Below the pieces are notes generated by a model. The model saw only the letters and a list, made by a program, of their open reading frames with translations. It was not told where the DNA came from and made no database searches. Of a DNA stretch of 64,000 nt, positions 1 to 19,731 are shown piece by piece (position 1 is the stretch's first letter; each line of letters begins with the position of its first letter). The stretch is from Lysobacterales bacterium (lineage in GTDB: Bacteria; Pseudomonadota; Gammaproteobacteria; Xanthomonadales; Xanthomonadaceae). Position numbers and translations under genes: made by a program. The stretch is from the NCBI GenBank assembly GCA_046318115.1, contig JBKCVA010000021.1, positions 114 to 64,113 of the forward strand, in the 5' to 3' direction.

Positions 1-262
1 CCAAGTGGTTCGCAGCGCTGCCCGATCAGCCTGCTGGGTTATGCCCGACCAGCTCGACCTGTTCGAGTCTCCGGCCAAGGCCAAGGGATTCATTGCGATC
101 GCCAAGCGCTGGATCGTGGAGCGGACGCACGCGTGGAACGAGCGCGTGCGTCGGCTGGTGATGCATCACGATCGCAAGACCAGCGTGTCCGAAGCCTGGG
201 TTTGGCTCACCGAGGCGCGGATGCTGCTTCGACGCCCGACCACCCAATTTGTCAACACCCTC
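1..262 (+). mobile_element. Right end of an IS5-family insertion sequence: transposase C-terminus plus right terminal inverted repeat TTGTCAACACCCTC (249-262); the element continues beyond the window start
   Basis: Translation contains GFIAIAKRWIVERTHAW...RRLVMHHDRK...EAWVWL, matching the RWxVERTxAW...RRL DDE_Tnp_1-type C-terminal signature; the end reads GAGGGTGTTGACAA on the minus strand, typical of IS5-family TIRs. Confidence 0.85.
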
Positions 263-843
263 TCAGCGCACCATGGTGCCCCACCACGCCGCCACGCGCT
301 GCAGTCCTTCTGCCACGCTCACCCGCGGCGCGTAGCCGAAGTCGCGGCGCGCCGCGGAAATGTCGTACCAGTGCGTGGTGGCGAGCTGTTCGGCGACGAA
401 GCGCGTCATCGGCGGCTCCGCTTCGATGCGGAACACGGTGTAGATGCCCTCCAGCACGGCGCCGATCGCGAACGCCAGCCCGTAGGGCACGCGGCGCGTC
501 TCCGGCCGCAGGCCGCAGGCCGCAGGCGCGCAGCATGGCGTTGATCATGTCGTCGGCGTAGACCGGCTCGCCGTTGCTGATGAAGTAGGCGCGCCCGGCG
601 CAGCCCGCGCCGGGCGCCACGCGGTCCAGCGCGTCGAGGTGCGCCTGCGCCGCGTTGTCGACGTAGACCACGTCGATCTTCTTTCGCACGGAGCCGACGA
701 AGCGCAGCCGGCCGGCGCGCGCGCGGTCGACGATGCGCGGCAGCAGGTGGTTGTCGCCGGGGCCCCAGATCAGGTGCGGGCGCAGCGCCACGGTGGACAG
801 CGTGGCGTCGTTGGCGGTCAGCACGCGCTGCTCGGCGGATGCA
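263..843 (-). pseudogene. oleD: 5'-truncated, frameshifted remnant of an OleD-like 2-alkyl-3-oxoalkanoate reductase (3-beta-HSD/NAD-dependent epimerase family)
   Basis: [45 protein letters not shown] in one frame and [28 protein letters not shown] in another; the N-terminal GxxGxxG half is absent; the frame switch coincides with a (GGCCGCA)x3 repeat at 504-524. Confidence 0.8.
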
Positions 844-845
844 AG

Positions 846-865
846 AATGTGTTGCGTGGCACATT
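846..865. promoter_or_regulatory. CRP/Clp-like palindromic operator AATGTG-N8-CACATT upstream of pgaA
   Basis: Perfect 6-bp inverted arms with the CRP-family spacing (TGTGt-N6-gCACA) in an AT-rich patch about 70 bp upstream of the likely pgaA start. Confidence 0.5.
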
Positions 866-937
866 TTTTGCTGTGTGACGCGTGTCCGTCTCCGCCACCG
901 GTGGAGTCCAGCCGCACGCCGATGTCCGGAGCTCCTC

Positions 938-3022
938 CTGAAAGTCGCGCCCTACCTACTACTGAAGCCCGCGCCCCTCGTCCTCGCCTTCAGCCTGGCC
1001 GGTTTCGCCTGCGGGTTTCCGATCGCGGCCTCGGCGCAGTCCACAAGTGACGCAGCGGGGCAGGCTTCCGAGGACGTTGGCGCGCTCATGGAGGCCGCCG
1101 CCGAGGCGCGTCGGCAATCCGACTGGCCGCTGGCGCTGGACCTCTATGCCCAGGCCCTGAGCGTCCGCCCCGGCCACGCGGCGGCGATCCGCGAGCGCGC
1201 ACTGACGCTCCAGCAGCAGGGTGCGGTGATCGAAGCCTGGCGCCAATACCGCGAACGCCCCACCCTGTTCCGCGCCAGCGAGGCGCTGGGCTTCGAGCTC
1301 GATGCGCTGGCGCGGCGACTGAACTGGGCTCAGCTCGAACGCGACCCGCAGGCCCAGCAAACCGCCCTGCTCGCCCTGCTCGACGAGTACGAGGCCATGC
1401 GCCTGGGCGCCGCCAGCGACGATGCCGGTGCCCTGGCGCGGGTCGAGAATGACCGCCTGCTGACCCTGCAGCTGCTCGGCCGCCATGCCGAAGTGGAAGC
1501 CGAAGTCACAGCGCGACTGGAGCGGGGCGAAGCCCTGCCCGACTGGCTGAAGGTGCCTGCCGCCGATTCCTTGATGGCCCTGCGCGAGCCTGAGCGCGCG
1601 CAGGAGCAACTGCAACCCGTCCTCGAGTCCGAACCGGGCAATGCCAGCGCCACGGTGCTGCAGGGCTATGCACTGTTGGAGCAGGAGCAGCACGAAGACG
1701 CGCGCGCCCTGCTGGGCGAGTGGTTGGCCGCGAATCCACCCTTCGATGCGGACGGCAAGGCCAACTGGGCGCGTCCCAGCGTCGAGCTGAACGACATCCT
1801 CATCGAGAATTTCAGCGAGCAGATCGACAGCGCCTACGCCCGCATCGTCGAACTGAGTGATCTGGCGCCGCTCGACCCCGGTCTGCAGGAGGCGCGCGCG
1901 GGCATCGAGCGCCGCCGCGGCTGGGCCGAAAAGGCCCTGGTCAGTGCGCGCATCGCCGCCACCGAGGCCCCGGACTGGGTGCTGCCGCGCGCCGCCGAGA
2001 TCGAAGCCCTGCTCGACCTCGATCGCATCCGCGAAGCGCGCATCCAGCTCGACACCTTCATCAAGCGCCACGGCAAGCACCGGCAGGCGCAGGGGGTGCA
2101 GCAGCGCTGGGAGCGCCGACAAGGCGCCCAATGGGCCGCCGAAGCCCTGCGCGCGCAGTCAAGTCTGGTCGAAGAGGGCGGCGGCGGGCCGCTGGGCCCG
2201 GGCGGCAACGGTGAGTTCCGCGCGATCGCGCGTTGGGAAGGTCCACTCATCGACGATGCCTGGCGCGTGGGCGCCCTGGCGGGCGTGCATTGGGCTGACT
2301 TCCAAGGGCAGCGCGTGGAGCGCAGCCGCGCGGCGGTCACCCTGAGCTGGCGCCAGGACCAGTTGGCTTGGGGCGCCGAGGCCGGCCGCACCCTGGATGA
2401 CTTCGTCCCCGAGACGGCGCTGGGCGGATGGCTGCGCTACCGGCACAACGACATCTGGCGGAGCTCGTACGCGCTCTGGCACCACGCGCCTTTCGCTTCC
2501 CTGCAGGCCCGGGCAGCGGGCATCCGCGCCGACGGCGCACAGTTCGGGCTCAGCCGCAGCCCGGATGAGCGCAGCCGCAGCGGGCTCAGCCTGGAACAGC
2601 TCCGCTACGAAGACGGCAACGTGCGCACCAGCGCCTACCTGTCCCACCGCCAGCAGATCAAGGCCCAACCGCGCGGCGAGTGGTACGCCCGCCTCGGTCT
2701 CGGCGGCGGCCGCGCCAGCCGCGAAGACGCGCCCTATTTCAACCCGCGCCGGGACGCCAGCGCGGATGCCGGCCTGACCCTTGACCGGGTGCTTGCGCGC
2801 GACTACGCCGAAACCTGGCGGCTGCGACTCGATGTCGACATCAGCCGCGGATGGCAGGACGGCTACGGCAGCCACTGGACGCCCGCAGTGGAAATCATGC
2901 CGCGCTGGCAGTGGTGCGCCGGCCACGAGGTGAGCCTCGGCCTGCGCTGGAGCCGACCGGTCTACGACGGCCGTCGCGAGGAACGCTGGGCGGTGGTGCT
3001 GCGCATCGGGGGTGGCGAATGA
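938..3022 (+). CDS. pgaA: PgaA-like PNAG export porin (N-terminal TPR region, C-terminal beta-barrel); start uncertain, likely CTG at 938
   Basis: ORF 839-3022; signal-peptide-like N-terminus, helical TPR-like repeats, YFNP motif and aromatic-rich C-terminal strands; first gene of a pgaABCD-type operon; GGAG lies 6 nt before CTG 938. Confidence 0.8.
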
Positions 3023-4809
3023 GCCGTTGGCTGATCGCCGTACTGCTGCTGTGGACGAGTGTCGACAGCCGCGCGGAACTGCTGGTGCTGCGCTTCGCCG
3101 ATGTGGTGAAGGACGCACGCGAAGCTGGCCATGAGCGATTGAGTCGCGACCAGCTCACCGCCCGCTTCGATTGGCTGGCTGCGCAAGGCTACCGTCCCGT
3201 CAGCCTGCAGCAGGTGCTGGACGCCCGTGCGGGTCGCGCCGAGCTGCCAGCGCAAGCCGTGCTGCTGAGCTTCGACGGCGGCTTCGACTCGCTGGAGACC
3301 GAAGTGCAGCCCCTTTTGCGCGCCTTCGGCTGGCCGGCGATCGCCGCGCTGCCTACGGCGCGGATCGGCCAGGACGACGAACGCCTCGACTGGCCGGCGC
3401 TGAAGCGCATCGCCGACCAGGGCTCGATCGAGCTGATCAGTGGCGGCCATGCACTGGACCAGCCGTGGCCGCGCGGCGAGGACGCCGCACCGCTGCCCTC
3501 GCCGACGCTGCGCCGTTTCGAGGGCTCCGCGCTCGAGACCTCGCGCGATTTCGCCGCGCGCGTGGCTGCCGACCTTCAGCTCAGTCGCGAAGCCCTCGAG
3601 GACGGCGCCGGTCGCACCCCGCGCGCGGTCGCCTGGCCACTCGGCGCGTGGACGCCTTTGGGCATGCGCGAGGCAGACATGCGCGGCATGGCGCTCGGCT
3701 TCGACCTGTCGGGGCGCTCCCAGCACGCCGACGCCTGGCCGGTGCTGGCGCGCCTCGACGTGGCCAGCGAGGCCAGCCTCGCCGACTTCGTCGCCGAACT
3801 CACCCCGCGGCGCATGCCGTCCTTCCGTGCGGTGCAGGTCGATCTCGACTACGTCTACGACCCCGATCCGGCACAGCTCGAGCGCAATCTCGATGCCCTG
3901 GTGGAGCGCATCGACGCGATCGCACCCAACCACGTCTGGCTGCAGGCCTTTGCCGATCCCGACGGCGACGGTGCCGCCGATGCGGTCTACTTCGGCAACC
4001 GCCACATGCCGATGCAGGCCGAGCTGTTCGGGCGCGTGGCCGAACTCCTGCGTCGCAAGACCGGCGTCGAAGTGCATGCCTGGCTGCCGGTGCTGGGCTG
4101 GCACTGGCCGGCGACGGAAGATGCCCCGCGCGCGCTCCGGGCCTCGAACGCCGGCGAGATCCCGCGGCTCGACCCCAGCGACCCGCGGACCGCCCAGCGC
4201 GTGGCCGAGATCTATGCCGATCTTGCCGCCCGCGCGCCGATCCAGGGCCTGCTGTTCCACGACGATGCCTTCCTGCGCGAAGACGAACTGCGCAGCGCCT
4301 GGCCCGACAACCGCGAGCGCGTGAACGCGCTGGTGGAGCTGACCCGGACGCTCGAAGCGGCCGCCGAGTCCGAACGCCCGCGCCTGCGCACCGCCCGCAA
4401 CCTGTATGCGCGCCCCCTGCTGGAGCCCGCCAGCGTCGCCTGGTTCGCCCAGGATCACGCCTCGATGCTGGCCGCCTACGACCGCGTCGCGCTGATGGCG
4501 ATGCCACGCATGGAAGGCGCTGGCGATGCGCGCGCCTGGCTGCTGGATCTCGCCGCCGAGGTGGAGCGCATCGACGCTGGCTTCGAGCGCACCGTGTTCG
4601 TCCTCCAGGCCCGCGACTGGGCGGGTGGACGGGCGATCGGCGATGACACCCTGATCGACTGGGCCCGCGAGCTGCGTGCCCGCGGGGTCCGCCATCTCGC
4701 CTACTACCCGGATGATTTCATCGGCGGCCAGCCCGGCCTGCGTGCAGCACGCGCCGTGGCCAGTGCGCGTCGGTTCCCGTACCTGCGGCAGGACCCCGGA
4801 ACCCGCTGA
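3019..4809 (+). CDS. pgaB: PgaB/HmsF-like protein: CE4-type N-terminal domain (degenerate active site) plus GH153 C-terminal domain
   Basis: GYRPVSL..LLSFDGG..WPA..AWPLG and VDLDYVYDPDP..WLQAFADPDGDG..HAWLPVL..GLLFHDDAFL..ARNLYA..MAMP..LQARDW..YYPDDF; ATGA overlap with pgaA. Confidence 0.9.
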   Translation: MSRWLIAVLLLWTSVDSRAELLVLRFADVVKDAREAGHERLSRDQLTARFDWLAAQGYRPVSLQQVLDARAGRAELPAQAVLLSFDGGFDSLETEVQPLLRAFGWPAIAALPTARIGQDDERLDWPALKRIADQGSIELISGGHALDQPWPRGEDAAPLPSPTLRRFEGSALETSRDFAARVAADLQLSREALEDGAGRTPRAVAWPLGAWTPLGMREADMRGMALGFDLSGRSQHADAWPVLARLDVASEASLADFVAELTPRRMPSFRAVQVDLDYVYDPDPAQLERNLDALVERIDAIAPNHVWLQAFADPDGDGAADAVYFGNRHMPMQAELFGRVAELLRRKTGVEVHAWLPVLGWHWPATEDAPRALRASNAGEIPRLDPSDPRTAQRVAEIYADLAARAPIQGLLFHDDAFLREDELRSAWPDNRERVNALVELTRTLEAAAESERPRLRTARNLYARPLLEPASVAWFAQDHASMLAAYDRVALMAMPRMEGAGDARAWLLDLAAEVERIDAGFERTVFVLQARDWAGGRAIGDDTLIDWARELRARGVRHLAYYPDDFIGGQPGLRAARAVASARRFPYLRQDPGTR

Positions 4810-6071
4810 TGGACTGGCTGCAGAACCCGGACTTTCTGAGCCTGTTCTTCGGCTTCGCCTTCTACTACCCGGCGACCATGTCGATCGTGTGGATGTGCGG
4901 CGGGCTCTACTACTTCCTGCGCCGTGAACGCCACGAGCCGCCGCGACACCAGCCGCCGGAAATGAAGGAATACCCCTTCGCGACCCTGCTCGTGCCCTGT
5001 CACAACGAGGGCCCCAACTGCGAGGACACGATCTCCGCACTCGCGGCGCAGATCTACCCGGACTTCGAGATCATCGCGATCAACGACGGCTCGACCGACG
5101 ACACCGCCGAGCACCTGAACCGTCTGACCGCGCGCTTCCCGCGTCTGCGGGTGATCCATCTGAGCCGCAACCTCGGCAAGGCCAACGCCCTGCGCATGGG
5201 TACGCTCGCGGCACGCGGCGAGTACCTGATCTGCATCGACGGCGATGCCATGCTCGACCCCTGGGCCACGCGCTGGATGGTCTGGCATCTGGCTTCGGGT
5301 CCGCGCGTGGGCGCCGTCACCGGCAACCCGCGCATCCGCAACCGCAGCACCCTGCTCGGGCGCCTGCAGGTCGGCGAATTCAGTTCGATCATCGGCATGA
5401 TCAAGCGCGCCCAGCGCGTGTACGGCCGCATTTTCACCCTCTCCGGCGTGATCGCCGGCTTCCGCAAGACCGCCTTGGAGCGCATCGGTTTCTGGAACGA
5501 AACCATGATCACCGAGGACATCGACATCAGCTGGCGCCTGCAGCTCGACCACTGGGACATCCGCTACGAGCCCAATGCGCTGTGCTGGATCCTGATGCCG
5601 GAAACCTACAAGGGCCTGTGGAAACAGCGCCTGCGCTGGGCCCAGGGCGGCGTGGAAGTGCTGATGAAGCACGCCGGCAACCTGCTCAACTGGAAGAAGC
5701 GCCGAATGTGGGGCGTGCTGGCCGAGTACTTCTTCAGCGTGCTCTGGGCCTACGTGATGCTCGGCATCCTGGTGCTCTGGGTCATCGGCCTCGTCTTCCA
5801 CATGCCGCCGGCGCTGTACGTCGACACCATCCTGCCGCGCTGGCATGGCATGGTGCTGGCCCTCATCTGCATGACCCAGTTTGGAGTGTCGATGATCATC
5901 GACCGCCGCTACGAGGCTGGGGTCGGTCGCAACTATTTCTGGATGGTCTGGTACCCCATCGCCTACTGGCTGCTCAGCCTGTTCACCACAGTGGTGGCCG
6001 TGCCGAAGACGATCTTCCGCGGCAAGCCCAAGCGTGCCACCTGGGTCAGCCCAGACCGGGGCGTGCAGTGA
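4809..6071 (+). CDS. pgaC: PNAG synthase, GT2 family
   Basis: NDGSTD, GKANAL, IDGDA, TEDID and QRLRWAQGG motifs plus C-terminal TM helices ending WVSPDRG. Confidence 0.95.
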   Translation: MDWLQNPDFLSLFFGFAFYYPATMSIVWMCGGLYYFLRRERHEPPRHQPPEMKEYPFATLLVPCHNEGPNCEDTISALAAQIYPDFEIIAINDGSTDDTAEHLNRLTARFPRLRVIHLSRNLGKANALRMGTLAARGEYLICIDGDAMLDPWATRWMVWHLASGPRVGAVTGNPRIRNRSTLLGRLQVGEFSSIIGMIKRAQRVYGRIFTLSGVIAGFRKTALERIGFWNETMITEDIDISWRLQLDHWDIRYEPNALCWILMPETYKGLWKQRLRWAQGGVEVLMKHAGNLLNWKKRRMWGVLAEYFFSVLWAYVMLGILVLWVIGLVFHMPPALYVDTILPRWHGMVLALICMTQFGVSMIIDRRYEAGVGRNYFWMVWYPIAYWLLSLFTTVVAVPKTIFRGKPKRATWVSPDRGVQ

Positions 6072-6613
6072 GCAGCAAGACGCTCAATCCGGCCGAACAG
6101 GTCGCCGCGACCGCGAACCAGCTCAAGCCGCAGGGCCCGCTGATCGTGGCCCCTGAGAAAGTCAGCTGGCGGGACCGCACGATCTCGCATCTCCTGACCG
6201 GCGCCGCCTGGGCCGCCTACTTCTGGCTGATCGCGCCGGCGATCACCACGCTGGCGTGGATCCTGGGCCTGCGCTACGCCTGGATCGAGCTGACCGCGCC
6301 CCTGTTGACCGGTCAGGGCATGCCGGGCCTGCTGCTGCCCATCCTCGCGGGCAGCGGTGTCGTCGTGCTGCTGCTGTGGGCTGAATTCAACCGCTGGCGC
6401 TTCACCGGCGTCGAACGCCGCAAGACCACCCCGCCCGTCTCCGACGCCGTAGTCGCCGCCGCGCTCGGCGCCCCGCTCTCGCTGCCGCACGAACTGCGCG
6501 CCAGCTTCGAGACGCTGCCGGTCGTGGTGCTGCAGATGAACGAGCAGGCCGAGCCCGAGGGCTTCATCGCCACGCTGGAACCGCCGAAGCCGCTGCGCAG
6601 GATCATGAAGTAG
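6068..6613 (+). CDS. pgaD: PgaD-like PNAG biosynthesis membrane protein
   Basis: GTGA overlap with pgaC stop; two TM segments; LLLWAEFNRWRFTGVERR matches the PgaD WAxYNxxRFxGxxRR pattern. Confidence 0.85.
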   Translation: MSSKTLNPAEQVAATANQLKPQGPLIVAPEKVSWRDRTISHLLTGAAWAAYFWLIAPAITTLAWILGLRYAWIELTAPLLTGQGMPGLLLPILAGSGVVVLLLWAEFNRWRFTGVERRKTTPPVSDAVVAAALGAPLSLPHELRASFETLPVVVLQMNEQAEPEGFIATLEPPKPLRRIMK

Positions 6614-6616
6614 GCC

Positions 6617-6639
6617 CATAGGGTGGGCGCTGGCCCACC
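6617..6639 (+). repeat. REP-like hairpin CATAG-GGTGGG-CGCTGG-CCCACC
   Basis: Same 23-nt architecture as the copies at 11167-11397 and 15025-15047; lies 3 nt after the pgaD stop. Confidence 0.7.
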
Positions 6640-6788
6640 GTGGGCTCGACGCTCGCACCACGATGGACGCGTGCCACGCCCGAAACGCTTCCACGGTGAG
6701 CGATCGGGTCCAGCCCTGCCGCCCCCTGACGCCTGGTCTGCAGCACGCACGCGCGTCAGAATCGCGAACGACCTACCCGGAGAAGCAC

Positions 6789-7166
6789 ATGGGCCTGCTC
6801 GACGGAATGCTTGGCAATGCCTCGAAGATCGACTCCGCGAAGATCCAGCACGAGTTCACCAGCCTTCTCGCGCAGGGCGAGCGTGTCGAACACGCCTACC
6901 AACTCATTCGCGACTACTTCGTTTTCACCGACAGGCGCTTGGTGCTGGTCGACAAGCAGGGGCTGACCGGCAGCAAGATCGAGTACCACTCGATCCCCTA
7001 CCGGAGCATTACCCACTTCAGCATCGAGACCGCTGGCACCTTCGATCTCGATGCCGAGCTCAAGATCTGGATCTCCAGCACCGCCGTACCTGTCCAGAAG
7101 CGCTTCAACAAGAAGCTCAGCATCTACGAGGTGCAGGCGGTGCTGGCAAGCTACGTGCTGCGCTAG
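6789..7166 (+). CDS. Bacterial PH-domain protein (YvbH/bPH_1-like)
   Basis: MGLLDGMLGNAS..LIRDYFVFTDRRLVLVDKQGLTGSKIEYHSIPY..FSIETAGTFDLDAELKIW; GGAGAAG RBS. Confidence 0.9.
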   Translation: MGLLDGMLGNASKIDSAKIQHEFTSLLAQGERVEHAYQLIRDYFVFTDRRLVLVDKQGLTGSKIEYHSIPYRSITHFSIETAGTFDLDAELKIWISSTAVPVQKRFNKKLSIYEVQAVLASYVLR

Positions 7167-15244: not shown

Positions 15245-17065
15245 ATGCGCGCCTTCGAAACGAGCGAGTTCAGCGTGCGCGGTCGCTGGCTGGCGCTGCT
15301 TCTGGGCCTGCTGGTGGGCGTGCCCGTCCCGCGTCCGGCGGCTGCTCAGCAGAATACGAACGCAAAGCCAGCCGCGCCCCCCGAAACCGTGTTCCAGCCG
15401 GACGTCAGGTTCCAGGCCCGCGACGGCGTCGAGCTCGCCCTGCGGCTCTGGCGTCCGGAGACCGTCGAGCAGGTCCCGGTGGTGCTGCAGCACACGCCTT
15501 ATCTGTCCGACGAAACCCATCTGCGCGCGCAGAAGTTCGTAGCGGCCGGCTTCGCCTATGCCAGCCTCGACCGTCGCGGACGCGGCGTCTCCGGCGGCGA
15601 CTACGTTCCGCTGGAAAACAGTGGCCCCGATGGCGCCGATGCCGTGGCCTAGCTGGCTGCGCAGCCCTGGTCCGACGGCCGCGTGGCGAGCATGGGCGGC
15701 TCCTATCGCGGCATGACCCAGTGGCAGATGCTGGCCGAGCAGCCTCCGGCGCTGCTGGCGGCCGCACCGACCGCATCGGTCTACCCGGGCTGGGACTTCC
15801 CGCAGCCGCGCGGGATTTTCCTGAGTTACATGGCGCAGTGGCTGGCCTTTACCGACGGACGCGCCAGCAATACCCAAGTGTTCGGCGACGTTTCCTACTG
15901 GCGCGGAAAGTACGAGCGGATCCACCGCGGCGAGCTCCCCTTCAGCGAGCTCGCGCGAATCAGCGGTGCCCCGCAGGCGCGGTTCGAGCGCTGGCTGGCG
16001 CACCCCGGCTTCGACAGCCATTGGCGGAGCCTGAATCCGAGCGCCGAGGACTACGCGCGCATGCAGCCGCCGCTGCTCAGCATCACCGGCTACTTCGACG
16101 GCGATCAGGAAGGCACGCTGCGCTACTACGAGGAGCACCTGCGCCACGCCAGCGCGGACATCGCGGATCGCCACTGGCTGCTGATCGGCCCCTGGAATCA
16201 TGCGGGCACACGCACACCGACCCGGACGGTCGGCGGCCTCGAATTCGCCGACGCCGCCATCCTCGACATCGACGCACTCCATATCGCCTGGTTCAACCAC
16301 GTACTGCGCGGCGCCGAGCGCCCCGCCGCTCTCGCTGGCAGGGTCAACTACTACGTGATGGGCGCCGAGGAATGGCGCCACGCTGACACACTGCAGGACG
16401 TTGCCGCACACACCTGGGCGCTCTACCTCGACCCGGATGGCGCCGACGCGACGTCGGTCTTCCACAGCGGTCGCCTCGGCGCCGCGCCGCCCGCGCGCGC
16501 CACCCCCAGCAGCTACCGCTTCGATCCAAGCGTCGTGCACGGTGGCGAGCCGGTTCTGACCAGCGGGCCCGACACCTATGCCGGCCATGCGGGCGCAGGC
16601 CGGCCGAACCAGCTGTTCTTCCACAGTGCGCCGCTGCCTGCAGCGCGGACGGTCTGCGGGCAGATCCGCTTCCAGGCCCACATCGAGATCGACGTACCCG
16701 ACACCGACGTGCACGTCGAGCTGTTCGAGGTGGATGCGAAGCAGGCGATCCGCTGGCTCGGCCGTGACTACCTGCGCGCTCGCTTCCGCGAAAGCTTCAG
16801 CGAAGAACGACTCGCGCAGCCCGGTCGGATCGAAACCTGGAACTTCGATCGCTTCTGGTGGACGTGCCGGCGGCTGGAAGCCGGCAGCCGGCTGCGGCTG
16901 GTGATCGGACCGGTCGACACACCCGACCTGCAGAAAAACCTGCACACGGGCGGACGCATCGGCTTCGAGCGCATGGAAGACGCGCGCACCGCCACGGTGC
17001 GCCTGCATCACGACCGCAGATACCCCAGCCGCCTGCTGCTGCCGACGGTCGAACCGATCGACTGA
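15245..17065 (+). pseudogene. Secreted CocE/NonD-family hydrolase interrupted by an in-frame TAG at 15650-15652
   Basis: ORFs 15167-15652 and 15683-17065 are in the same frame; RDGVELA..TPY..DRRGRG.SGG..DAVA*LAAQPWSDGRV..GGSYRG..IGPWNH; the stop sits where Trp is expected. Confidence 0.85.
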
Positions 17066-17275
17066 GCCTGTCGCCCGGAGCCTCAGGAACACGCCTGCCG
17101 CAGGGCACCAGGGATTCGGTCGATGCGTACCATTCGGTCAATAGGGGGATCCAAGCCCGAGAGGTTTCGCGAAGACGCTGAACAGGATGGCCCCTGACCC
17201 ACCCTCGCGTGGAGGCTCGACCCCCTCCGGGGCTTTCCCATTGGCGCGGTCGCGCGTGAGGGATCGTCGATGAGG

Positions 17276-17338
17276 GACCGAGGCCGGCGTTGGGCTCATG
17301 GTGGGCCGGCGCCCACCCCAATGGGAATCCGCCATCAC
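17276..17338. repeat. REP-containing composite repeat, right copy flanking the CocE gene
   Basis: Direct, imperfect repeat of 14959-15019. Confidence 0.7.
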
Positions 17339-17418
17339 GACACGCATGGGGTGAGCGGCGCGGGCTCAATGCTGGCCTCGGCTCGGCTCTGCGCCAAGCT
17401 GCACATCCGCGTCCGACC

Positions 17419-19731
17419 TCAGCGCTGCTCCAGCTCCGCGCGCGCGACTTCGCGTACCAGCCGGAAACCGACATCGTCATAGCCATGCGCGGGATCAACC
17501 GCAGCCTCGCGCTCGCGCTCGGGCTGCTCGGCCTCGCGGCGCCCGAAGCCCAGCAGCGGCTGACGCACACAGCCAGCGGCGCAGGGCGCGCTCCACTCGC
17601 GCACCTGGTCAGAACGGGCGCAGCCTGCTGGCGCGGCCCGACAGGCTTCCGCCGCCATCGCCGCCGGCAGGGCGCGCCATTCGTCGACCTCGGGCATGCG
17701 GTAGCGCCGCCCCTCCTGCCCACTCAACCACTGCGCGTAGGCCGCGGCATCCGCGAGGCTCACACAGACCACCGGTTCTGCAGACGACTGCTCGAAGCCC
17801 GGCGCATCCCATCGTCGTTTGCGCAGGTTGAAGGCAGCACTGCGGATCTTGCAGTTGGCCGCAGCGCGCCCGGTGGCAGCGACGAAGCGCGCGTAGTCGC
17901 TGCGGCTGACCGGCTCGACCAGCGCCGCCAGCCCTGGACGCTCGCCCTCCGGCAGGCGCAGCAGCTGCTGCGCAGGAGTGCCCGCCAACCGCTGGCCGAC
18001 GCGGGCACGCACGATGCCCTGTGACCATTCGGGTTCCAGCGTGGCCGCCGCGATCGAGAGGGCTTCCGCCTCGACGCGCGCCGCGCGCAGCGCCTCGACA
18101 TCTCCAGCCGCGAGCGCTGCCTGCAGACGGGAGCGCGCCCAGTCGCGCGGCGCCTGCTGCACGGCGCGCCAGGCCTCGCTGTCGGTCAGCGCCAACGCGT
18201 GCGCCAGCGCGACGGCGGCGCTGTAGAGCCGACGGTCGGGCGCGCTTGCGTCAGGGCTGAAGCTCCGTTCGACGTAGGGCTGGGCTGCCGCCAGCCAGTC
18301 GTTGCCCAAGCGCGCGAGTGCGTCCGCGTCGGCCCCGAGGGCTTGTGCGGTCAGCAGCGATTCGTGGGCATTGGCGCCGGACGGCTGGGTGAGACGACGC
18401 TGGCGGATCTGCAGCCCGGCGAAATGCAGCGCCTGCTGCAGCGGAGGCAGCGCCGCAATCTCCGGGTCGATGGCGGCTTCGGTGTCGGCGGCGGCATCGG
18501 CCGTGGGCAACTCGCCCGAGGACGCAGCTGGAACCTGCCCGGGTTCGAGCACAGCCGAAGTCGGCAGGGCCGGGGTCGACGTGGCCGCGAGCGGCGGCGC
18601 GACCGCAGCGGCGCGCGCGAGCGCCGCCTCGGGGCCAGGCGCCGGCTCGGCCAGCGCCCCGATCACCTCGGCAACCGCCGCACTGGCGCCGGGCCGATGC
18701 CAAGCCTGCCAGGCCACCACCAGCGCCAGCGCCAGCACCACTAGGGCAGCCACGGCGATGAACAGCGGGTTCACTGTGCGCTTTGGCGTCGTCGGCAGCA
18801 CCGCACGCGGCGCGGTGATGGCCTCATCGAGCGGCACCGGCGCAGGCGCGGGCGCAGGGCCGGTGTCGAGCCGCGCCTGCTCGATGCGATCCAGCGCAGC
18901 CATCATGTCCTGCGCGCTGGCGAAGCGGGCGTCCGGCGTCTTCGCCAGGGCGCGGTCGATGAAGGCCTGCCAGTGCGACTTGTGCGCGGGCAGGCGGGGG
19001 ATCGGGTCGACCGAGTGGCGCACCGCCATCTGCAGAGGACCATCCGCCTGGAAGGGCAGTTCGCCCATCAGCTTGTCGTAGGCCAGCACGCCGATGCTGT
19101 AGAGATCGGCGCGACCATCGACCTTCTCGCCGCGGGCCTGCTCCGGTGCCATGTGGGTGGCGCTGCCGAGCGCGAAGCCACCGTCGGTGACGCGTTGGCG
19201 GTCGGAGCGGTGCATGGCGATGCCGAAATCGGTGAGCAGCGGGCGATCGACGTTGTCGAACAGCACGTTCTCGGACTTGATGTCCCGATGCACGACGCCG
19301 CGTTCGTGGGCGTAGTCGAGCGCCCACAGCAGCGCGCGCAGGATCGCGATGAGCCGCGGCTCGTCGCTGACCAGCTCACGCTGCCCCAGATGGCCGCGCG
19401 GCAGGAAGGGCATCACGTAGTAGAGCAGGCCCAGCTCGGTGCGGCCGACGTCATGGATGCTGACGATGCCGGGATGCTGCAGCTTGGCGATGGTGCGCGC
19501 CTCGCGCTCGAAGCGCAGCTTGCTGATCTCGTCCTTCAGCGCGGTCGGCGCGATGACCTTGATGGCCACCTGCCGGTCCAGCGACTCCTGCACGCCCAGA
19601 TAGACGTAGGACATACCGCCCTGTCCCAGCCGACGCAGCACGCGGTAGCCCGGTATGTCGGGCATGTAGGCCGACAGCAACTCGGACAACTCGTCGGGCG
19701 AGAGATCGGGCGAGGGCGTAGGGGTAGCCAT
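17419..19731 (-). CDS. Hanks-type Ser/Thr protein kinase with TM segment and C-terminal FGE-sulfatase (SUMF1)-like domain
   Basis: GQGGMSYV, VAIK, HRDIKSEN, DFG, MAPEQ, DLYSIG; TM LFIAVAALVVLALALVVAW; PVVCVSLADAAAYAQWLS..RMPEVDEW..VREW..GFRLVRE. Confidence 0.92.
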   Translation of the reverse strand: MATPTPSPDLSPDELSELLSAYMPDIPGYRVLRRLGQGGMSYVYLGVQESLDRQVAIKVIAPTALKDEISKLRFEREARTIAKLQHPGIVSIHDVGRTELGLLYYVMPFLPRGHLGQRELVSDEPRLIAILRALLWALDYAHERGVVHRDIKSENVLFDNVDRPLLTDFGIAMHRSDRQRVTDGGFALGSATHMAPEQARGEKVDGRADLYSIGVLAYDKLMGELPFQADGPLQMAVRHSVDPIPRLPAHKSHWQAFIDRALAKTPDARFASAQDMMAALDRIEQARLDTGPAPAPAPVPLDEAITAPRAVLPTTPKRTVNPLFIAVAALVVLALALVVAWQAWHRPGASAAVAEVIGALAEPAPGPEAALARAAAVAPPLAATSTPALPTSAVLEPGQVPAASSGELPTADAAADTEAAIDPEIAALPPLQQALHFAGLQIRQRRLTQPSGANAHESLLTAQALGADADALARLGNDWLAAAQPYVERSFSPDASAPDRRLYSAAVALAHALALTDSEAWRAVQQAPRDWARSRLQAALAAGDVEALRAARVEAEALSIAAATLEPEWSQGIVRARVGQRLAGTPAQQLLRLPEGERPGLAALVEPVSRSDYARFVAATGRAAANCKIRSAAFNLRKRRWDAPGFEQSSAEPVVCVSLADAAAYAQWLSGQEGRRYRMPEVDEWRALPAAMAAEACRAAPAGCARSDQVREWSAPCAAGCVRQPLLGFGRREAEQPEREREAAVDPAHGYDDVGFRLVREVARAELEQR

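Follow-up and report, generated by a model that had tools for sequence, protein, structure and literature searches.

The DNA stretch analysed here, 64,000 nucleotides long and hereafter called the window (positions 114 to 64,113 of contig JBKCVA010000021.1, assembly GCA_046318115.1), carries at 839-6613 on the forward strand a densely packed and complete pgaABCD operon for the exopolysaccharide poly-β-1,6-N-acetyl-D-glucosamine (PNAG). The source genome (4.36 Mb in 185 contigs, 96% complete) belongs to the freshwater genus Aquimonas, in the Lysobacteraceae. The second gene of the operon encodes a variant of the PNAG deacetylase PgaB in which the carbohydrate esterase (CE4) domain has lost its catalytic acid and all three metal ligands. 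As judged from sequence, it is apparently a naturally deacetylase-dead PgaB that is fixed in Aquimonas and belongs to a recurring class so far undescribed. The operon consists of the following genes:

839-3022, + strand: pgaA, outer-membrane porin with a periplasmic tetratricopeptide-repeat (TPR) domain; start codon assigned tentatively
3019-4809, + strand: variant pgaB, 596 residues comprising a signal peptide, a degenerate CE4 domain and a GH153 domain
4809-6071, + strand: pgaC, PNAG synthase (GT2); TIGR03937, 623 bits against a cut-off of 422
6068-6613, + strand: pgaD; PF13994, 57.2 bits; its GTG start overlaps the pgaC stop

The pgaB reading frame is stop-free over its 596 codons (protein P0001), and its product scores 473.7 bits against the PgaB profile TIGR03938, well above the cut-off of 321.9. 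The profile of the C-terminal half (PF14883/GHL13) is matched with 315 bits, that of the deacetylase domain (PF01522) with only 26.9 bits. The pgaA product matches PF21197 (PgaA_barrel, 107.7 bits) and TPR profiles, and stays below the TIGR03939 cut-off of 366.65 with 267 bits. The stop codon of pgaA and the start codon of pgaB overlap (ATGA), as do the pgaB TGA and the pgaC ATG. As is characteristic of its family, pgaB lies between pgaA and pgaC of a pgaABCD operon, an order found in six other Aquimonas genomes as well, and both profile matches and an AlphaFold2 model place a permuted CE4 domain at the N-terminus and a GH153 TIM barrel at the C-terminus of its product. Close relatives are already named accordingly in databases: P0022, 96% identical to P0001, appears as "MAG: ... 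PgaB, partial [Aquimonas sp.]", and the cluster of P0021 (59% identical) includes WP_395794749.1, "PgaB [Aquimonas sp.]".

Just 5' of pgaA and near the contig end, a fragment at 5-544 (+) weakly resembles DDE_Tnp_1_2 (24.6 bits, cut-off 29.2), and the operon may lie next to a mobile-element remnant. Directly 3' of the pgaD stop, a GC-rich inverted repeat, GGGTGGGCGCTGGCCCACCGTGGGC (6617-6650), could form a terminator-like hairpin or one resembling a repetitive extragenic palindrome (REP). The next gene downstream of pgaD (6789-7166, +) encodes a bPH_1 bacterial PH-domain protein of 125 residues (171 bits); as it occupies this position in only three of seven Aquimonas genomes, we rejected it as a member of the operon.

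Active-site residues and predicted fold of PgaB

The residues of PgaB were compared with E. coli K-12 PgaB by MAFFT alignment, with Protein Data Bank chains by phmmer and with the DNA by codon look-up. The features identified, all on the + strand, are:

3019-3075: signal peptide of 19 residues, cleavage before E; signal-peptidase-I type, no lipobox Cys
3076-3804: degenerate, circularly permuted CE4 ("NodB2") domain, residues 20-262
3097-3099: Ala27 (codon GCC), replacing the catalytic acid His (E. coli H55, BpsB H49)
3274-3279: Asp86-Gly87; the catalytic base D114 is kept as D86 (3274-3276), the metal ligand D115 is replaced by G87 (3277-3279)
3361-3363: Arg115, replacing the active-site pocket Trp W143
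3442-3459: G142-G-H144-A-L-D147 in place of H184-x-x-x-x-H189; H184 is replaced by G142 (3442-3444) and H189 by D147 (3457-3459)
3640-3642: Leu208, replacing the Tyr of WPYG (E. coli Y252)
3826-4788: GH153 (β/α)8 domain, residues 270-590
3841-3849: Asp275 and Asp277 (BpsB D326, D328), proposed -3 subsite
3955-3957: Asp313 (BpsB D364), proposed -3 subsite
4258-4263: His414-Asp415 (BpsB H473-D474), proposed catalytic acid pair
4600-4602: Val528, replacing the +2-subsite Glu (BpsB E585, E. coli E607)

An initial annotation, made by eye, had described four changes in the CE4 motifs, and alignment and codons bear out each of them: the catalytic His has become Ala, TFDDG has become SFDGG with loss of the metal-binding Asp, both metal-binding His residues are gone, and WPYG reads WPLG. 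The exchange of W143 for Arg is a further substitution that had not been listed. Together with Y252 and Y121, it leaves all three pocket aromatics replaced, and 14 residues are deleted from the loop that corresponds to ~147-163 of E. coli PgaB.

These states are not peculiar to one protein. A protein search followed by MAFFT alignment gave 21 full-length homologues at 59-99% identity (P0002-P0022), all of which share the dead-site motifs, in the forms RFAD/RYAD, FDG(G/A) and S(A/G)(G/S)H(A/V)LD. All 99 homologues at ≤49% identity, including proteins of Luteimonas, Lysobacter, Pseudoxanthomonas and Marilutibacter, are canonical (YHD, FDDG and SH(S/T)xxxH). The D115 column thus holds Gly in 21/21 clade members as opposed to Asp in 99/99 canonical relatives; across the clade the triad D115/H184/H189 reads G, A/G and D, and Ala occupies the H55 column throughout. 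Of the residues that define a CE4 active site, only the catalytic base Asp of motif MT1 persists, as the invariant D86, whereas the metal triad, the acid His of MT5 (A27), the Tyr of the MT3 motif (A/W)YPYG (L208) and the pocket Trp (R115) are all missing. Besides D86, the residues R115, D124, the middle His H144 and the new D147 are invariant at 59-99% identity.

The active-site positions have been studied in related enzymes. D115 and H184 coordinate the metal ion (PMC13366581). In HmsF of Y. pestis, D114, D115, W143 and H184 were reported to be critical for function, with W143 being important for synthesis of the extracellular matrix (PMC3036065). The H49A and D114A variants of BpsB from B. 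bronchiseptica are inactive as deacetylases and also abolish hydrolysis of PNAG made in situ (PMC5933820). We therefore predict that the CE4 domain of Aquimonas PgaB, which lacks the residues required for metal-dependent de-N-acetylation, is devoid of this activity.

The absence of a lipobox Cys, which the initial annotation had listed along with the motif changes, was likewise found; PgaB homologues begin at the same Met, and no Cys is present. It is nevertheless unconnected to the dead site, because the canonical PgaBs of other Lysobacteraceae also carry signal-peptidase-I-type signals without a lipobox. We thus set it aside as a family-wide trait, in which Lysobacteraceae PgaBs differ from the outer-membrane lipoproteins of E. 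coli and Y. pestis.

In the GH153 domain, all C-terminal motifs quoted earlier (DLDYVYDPD, LQAFADPDGDG, GLLFHDD, MAMP and YYPDDF) are present. The catalytic pair H414-D415 is invariant in 21/21 clade members, as are the Asp residues of the -3 cluster (D275, D277 and D313); the roles of these residues were proposed for BpsB (PMC5933820). The description of this domain as intact nonetheless needs qualification: while its catalytic and -3/-1 subsite residues do not vary, 21/21 clade members have Val in place of the +2-subsite Glu. In BpsB, the mutation E585A costs more than 90% of activity, whereas E585Q behaves like wild type (PMC5933820), and the 99 canonical Lysobacteraceae-type relatives have Glu (90) or Gln (9) in this column. 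In the wider family the position is variable, with Glu in only 39 of 96 canonical representatives, and Val528 is therefore weak evidence against hydrolase function. A family-wide co-variation of the Glu-to-Val change with dead CE4 domains was rejected (Fisher p = 0.30); the change is specific to the clade.

The structure-prediction check proposed with the initial annotation gave a complete PgaB fold. An AlphaFold2 model from a 52-sequence alignment reached a pLDDT of 89.9 and a pTM of 0.87; most 10-residue blocks of the N-domain exceed pLDDT 90, the sole soft part being the 150-170 loop. Foldseek matched the model to full-length E. coli PgaB (4f9d) with template-modelling (TM) scores of 0.80/0.81, to the GH domain of BpsB (6au1; TMt 0.83), to the isolated deacetylase domains 3vus and 4u10 (TMt 0.79) and to IcaB (4wcj; 0.80). 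The (β/α)7 NodB fold, and with it the overall PgaB fold, is hence predicted to be kept.

Distribution, constraint and recurrence of the loss

That four substitutions in an uninterrupted reading frame reflect evolved loss and not sequencing error had been argued at the outset, and is supported by the identical states in 21/21 homologues and by independent data. In 20 metagenome runs from lakes, freshwater and drinking water, which stem from many studies, 62-99% of the sampled operon 31-mers were recovered. Contigs from four of these metagenomes differ from the window at 0-2 positions in pgaB and at none of the key codons, and a sequencing or assembly artefact was rejected on these grounds. Four aquatic metatranscriptomes from two studies yielded contigs 100% identical to parts of pgaA, pgaB, pgaC and pgaD, consistent with transcription of the operon in situ.

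Among 301 Lysobacteraceae genomes, the variant PgaB was found in Aquimonas only. Seven of ten sampled Aquimonas genomes carry it, each with exactly one PgaB match and none with a second, canonical copy; the other three have no pgaB. All seven pga-positive genomes have an intact pgaABCD operon, and the reading frames of the 21 full-length homologues and of the seven species-level genomes contain neither a stop nor a frameshift. Relative to the window, the six other Aquimonas operons show identities of 89-98% for PgaC, 60-86% for PgaA, 59-87% for PgaB and 63-93% for PgaD. The survey of homologues thus excludes the alternative that relatives all have intact motifs and only this copy is under relaxed selection. 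As a separate observation on copy number, one Lysobacteraceae genome has two PgaB matches about 4 kb apart (G210:C49:10713-12494 and 16524-18401; 43% and 49% identical to the query), which may be a tandem pga duplication.

Selection on the two domains was estimated by the Nei-Gojobori method from codon alignments of the seven Aquimonas genomes. The ratio of nonsynonymous to synonymous substitution rates (dN/dS) is 0.11-0.34 for the GH153 domain over all pairs. For the CE4 domain it is 0.10-0.61 over all pairs and 0.10-0.32 for the six closest (L006-L007, L006-L008, L006-L009, L007-L008, L008-L009 and L010-L011); the higher values belong to the most divergent pairs, in which dS is near saturation and GC content at third codon positions is ~0.83. 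The median ratio of N-domain to C-domain dN is 1.9 within the clade, as compared with 1.03 (5-95% range 0.72-1.22) in 250 canonical pairs. Canonical relatives show 91 N-domain columns with ≥95% conservation, and the clade retains just 35 of these, as opposed to 94 of the 109 near-invariant C-domain columns; within the clade itself, 81 of 243 N-domain columns are ≥95% conserved. The dN/dS check called for initially therefore returns values below 1 for the N-domain at about twice the C-domain dN: the CE4 domain has lost roughly half of its constraint but is not neutral, and is under relaxed but real purifying selection.

The acceleration is specific to this domain. For pairs matched on PgaC identity (0.60-0.72), N-domain identity between Aquimonas and canonical PgaBs is 38%, in comparison with 64% among canonical pairs. 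The corresponding values are 56% and 62% for the PgaB C-domain, 32% and 40% for PgaA, and 38% and 43% for PgaD, drops of just 5-8 points.

To place the loss, we built a maximum-likelihood tree of PgaC (IQ-TREE, LG+G4, ultrafast bootstrap). The seven Aquimonas operons form a clade (support 96) that is sister to a Lysobacteraceae genome with a canonical PgaB (support 100) and nested among canonical operons; all other Lysobacteraceae PgaBs checked are canonical. The catalytic acid His, the three metal ligands and the pocket aromatics were therefore replaced on the Aquimonas stem, after its split from this canonical relative.

Loss of the metal site also occurs elsewhere. A HMMER scan of 1.84 billion representatives at 50% identity returned 289 proteins at E ≤1e-30, and among the best 150 of these, 130 cover all five catalytic positions. 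Canonical residues (H-D-D-H-H) are present in 109 of the 130, and in 17 (13%) two or all three metal ligands are missing. P0144 (G-E-G-Q-D) and P0197 (Q-D-N-G-G) lie inside complete pgaABCD operons; their PgaCs share 57% and 48% identity with that of Aquimonas, which they resemble no more than those of canonical Lysobacteraceae, and both operons fall outside the Lysobacteraceae in the PgaC tree. By their aligned residues, at least two other pgaABCD lineages have lost the PgaB metal site. P0210, P0222, P0238, P0255-7 and P0279 are mostly TPR-CE4-GH153 fusions of 881-1036 residues that have also lost the GH153 His-Asp pair, as has P0197. One such protein, P0210 (L058:6001-9009, on a metagenome contig), joins TPR, CE4-like and GH153-like parts in 1002 residues with both catalytic sites degenerate, and adjoins a PAS-GGDEF protein outside any pga operon.

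The dead sites resemble one another. Tyr or Phe at position 252 occurs in none of the dead representatives listed and in 109/109 canonical ones, which also have Trp, Phe or Tyr at 143. Arg or Lys at position 143 occurs in 8/17 dead and 0/109 canonical representatives, seven of the eight also carry Asp at 189, and His at 186 is found in 13/17 dead as against 45/109 canonical proteins. P0144, P0241 and P0242 share Gly115 and Arg143 with Aquimonas as well as T(A/S)RI, and GHALD is common to Aquimonas, P0144 and P0242. A tree of the N-domain groups Aquimonas with P0144, P0241 and P0242 (support 0.996), whereas the C-domain tree, the PgaC identities and the PgaC tree separate these lineages; between dead lineages the N-domains are 38-40% identical, and 39% to canonical proteins. 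A single origin of all dead PgaBs was consequently set aside. We treat the origins as independent, and the shared pattern may reflect convergence, long-branch attraction or ancient common descent. The most detailed survey published on the evolution of pga operons reports indels and fusions around a "conserved deacetylase core", with no mention of catalytic residues being lost (PMC7112194), and our literature searches on PgaB as a pseudoenzyme, as catalytically inactive and as a CE4 protein found no report of such loss.

Proposed role of the CE4 domain and alternative explanations

On the basis of these results, we consider it probable that the protein is the sole PgaB of a complete, conserved and transcribed Aquimonas pgaABCD operon, and that its CE4 domain is a pseudo-deacetylase kept for docking onto the TPR domain of PgaA and for guiding the polymer. 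Retention of the fold as a binding or scaffold pseudoenzyme was among the options named initially, and is supported by the clade-wide loss of residues, the intact operon and purifying selection. The dead N-domain would be retained for non-catalytic work, with docking on PgaA as the best-supported role. Lysobacteraceae PgaBs have no lipid anchor, and docking on PgaA would therefore keep GH153 at the export pore, where the chain would be passed on. Invariant residues D86, R115, H144 and D147 may form an Arg-Asp salt-bridge plug in the space left by the metal, or else a residual sugar-binding site. The polymer would then leave the cell in fully acetylated form, or an unlinked enzyme would deacetylate it; conservation of the -3 Asp cluster points towards some glucosamine (GlcN) in the polymer, the lack of a linked or clearly periplasmic deacetylase towards full acetylation. 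A test for adaptation of PgaA to an uncharged polymer gave no signal in the net charge of its barrel, which ranges from -2 to +8 in Aquimonas and from -4 to +12 in canonical Lysobacteraceae.

Several points weigh against a mere scaffold. The invariant D86/R115/H144/D147 and the recurrent Arg/Lys143-His186-Asp189 pattern could mark a rebuilt functional site, and a polymer that is still partly deacetylated would more readily explain why the -3 Asp cluster, proposed to serve GlcN recognition, is fully conserved. Docking is proposed by analogy with E. coli, Aquimonas PgaA is just ~32% identical to other Lysobacteraceae PgaAs, and the contigs from RNA libraries may partly stem from DNA carry-over.

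A search of the source genome for other CE4 genes, as suggested in the initial annotation, identified three further PF01522 genes, none of them compelling:

G000:C63:764-1372, - strand: L001, stand-alone CE4 protein of 329 residues without a recognisable signal peptide
G000:C152: L002, stand-alone CE4 protein of 269 residues with intact motifs, without a recognisable signal peptide
L003:610-2532 (G000:C84): L003, secreted protein of 640 residues with a weak CE4 match (PF01522, 30.6 bits)

L001 has intact YH, TFDDG and HTMHH motifs in the permuted order of PgaB and IcaB, the order YH...TFDDG...H(T/S)xxH...YP(V/F)G being common to L001 and L002, and among NCBIfam profiles L001 scores best with PgaB (43.9 bits) and IcaB (37.6 bits). 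In L003, MT1 is atypical ("FTADTE"), and the N-terminal half, ~300 residues long, is uncharacterised apart from a faint DUF4350 match.

These genes bear on the possibility that PNAG is still partly de-N-acetylated by a CE4 protein or another amidase encoded outside the operon, while PgaB keeps binding and hydrolysis. Such a trans-acting enzyme is compatible with a pseudo-deacetylase and differs from it only in the state of the polymer; we regard it as unlikely. In its favour, the -3 Asp cluster, with its proposed role in GlcN binding, does not vary and canonical GH153 domains need a deacetylated substrate (PMC5933820), L001 combines intact motifs with the permuted order, and its type is present in 7/7 pga-positive and 0/3 pga-negative Aquimonas genomes, that of L003 in most of the former and in 0/3 of the latter. 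This co-occurrence, however, rests on ~10 genomes and may mirror sub-clades of Aquimonas. Moreover, L001 and L002 are without a recognisable signal peptide and adjoin genes that, judged by eye from their translations, resemble a Wzx-type flippase and an acyltransferase, respectively; L001 probably belongs to another polysaccharide locus. No polysaccharide genes are among the neighbours of L003, and a deacetylase gene within or next to the operon was found neither in the window nor in the six other Aquimonas genomes.

A rebuilt active site, in which the N-domain uses D86, R115, H144 and D147 as a metal-independent or differently metallated de-N-acetylase, or as an esterase acting on another decoration of PNAG, seems to us improbable. 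Metal-independent enzymes with a NodB fold are known (3CL6; PMC10967932), the residues in question and D124 are invariant, and the enrichment of Arg/Lys143, Asp189 and His186 in dead proteins may be convergent, as operon phylogeny separates at least Aquimonas and P0144. Yet nothing visibly takes the place of the catalytic acid His, the pocket aromatics are gone, and a doubled dN with 35 of 91 conserved columns kept resembles loss of constraint more than retuning; the N-domain tree, too, leaves room for common descent or long-branch attraction. Decay in progress, with the operon or the N-domain unused and drifting towards a pseudogene, would fit the three genomes without pgaB, the N-domain dN at twice that of the C-domain and the transposase fragment just upstream of pgaA. 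It is largely refuted, and in our view hardly tenable, given that no reading frame is interrupted, dN/dS is below 1 in both domains, a third of the N-domain columns is conserved within the clade, PgaC identity and gene overlaps are maintained, the operon is represented in metatranscriptomes and the fold is predicted with high confidence.

Models derived from E. coli, Yersinia and Bordetella treat de-N-acetylation by PgaB as indispensable: GH153 cleaves deacetylated polymer only, and the TPR domain of PgaA binds de-N-acetylated PNAG better than PNAG. Work by Itoh and colleagues in 2008 reportedly found that deacetylase point mutants retain the polymer in the periplasm. Aquimonas and at least two other operon lineages offer a natural experiment on whether deacetylation is required for PNAG export, on non-catalytic roles of CE4 domains such as docking on the PgaA TPR domain and chain guiding, and on what GH153 recognises. 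Export of fully acetylated PNAG, if true, would contradict the Gram-negative rule that de-N-acetylation is required. A bolder proposal, which we put forward only tentatively and with more doubt than conviction, is that loss of the PgaB deacetylase is recurrent and possibly convergent, has occurred at least three times in operon lineages and repeatedly produced the same site (Arg/Lys143, His186, Asp189, Gly115), giving rise to a second functional class of PNAG machines that export fully acetylated PNAG through PgaA or whose remodelled pocket has taken on a new metal-independent activity or specifically recognises the acetylated chain. For annotation, the name "poly-beta-1,6-N-acetyl-D-glucosamine N-deacetylase PgaB" is probably wrong for the clade, and the same problem concerns about one in eight of the diverse PgaB-like representatives surveyed. 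Clade members P0005, P0020, P0021 and P0131 (WP_395794749.1) are named deacetylase PgaB or "biofilm PGA synthesis lipoprotein PgaB"; they lack both the deacetylase residues and a lipobox.

Comparison with known systems

E. coli PgaB (4F9D, 3VUS, 4P7L) and Y. pestis HmsF share with the Aquimonas protein the CE4-GH153 architecture (TM 0.80 over 603 columns), the second position in pgaABCD, the catalytic base Asp, and the His-Asp pair and -3 Asp residues of GH153, with Val in Aquimonas in place of the +2 Glu. At ~30% identity to E. coli PgaB, the Aquimonas protein differs in the replacement of H55, D115, H184, H189, W143 and Y252, in its shortened loop and in the missing lipobox. Among solved GH153 domains, that of BpsB (PgaB(Bb); 5BU6, 6AU1) is the nearest, with 42% identity and a TMt of 0.83; the equivalents of D326, D328, D364, H473 and D474 are kept and E585 is Val. 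The middle His of its H-S-H-x-L-H motif is present in both proteins. BpsB is an active deacetylase, whose inactive H49A variant corresponds to the natural state in Aquimonas.

The canonical PgaBs of Luteimonas, Lysobacter, Pseudoxanthomonas and Marilutibacter belong to the same family and operon type, have the same non-lipoprotein signal, and are encoded with PgaCs up to ~81% identical to that of Aquimonas; unlike the latter, they keep YHD, FDDG and SHSHxLH. Their N-domains are 37% identical to that of Aquimonas, whereas canonical pairs at the same C-domain distance reach 57-71%. P0144, P0197 and the TPR-fused proteins (900-1036 residues, for example P0210) have, like Aquimonas PgaB, lost at least two of three metal ligands and the WPYG Tyr, but P0197 and the TPR-fused clade have in addition lost the GH153 His-Asp pair that Aquimonas keeps. 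Outside the PgaB family, the CE4 pseudoenzymes Ba0150 of B. anthracis (4M1B) and EcCDA of E. cuniculi (2VYO) likewise keep a NodB fold with loss of catalytic or metal-binding residues; in 2VYO, both His residues of MT2, the catalytic Asp of MT1 and the Arg of MT3 are missing (PMC10967932). In contrast to Aquimonas PgaB, these are single-domain proteins of the NodB1 type, which are not fused to a glycoside hydrolase and act outside a synthase-dependent exopolysaccharide export machine.

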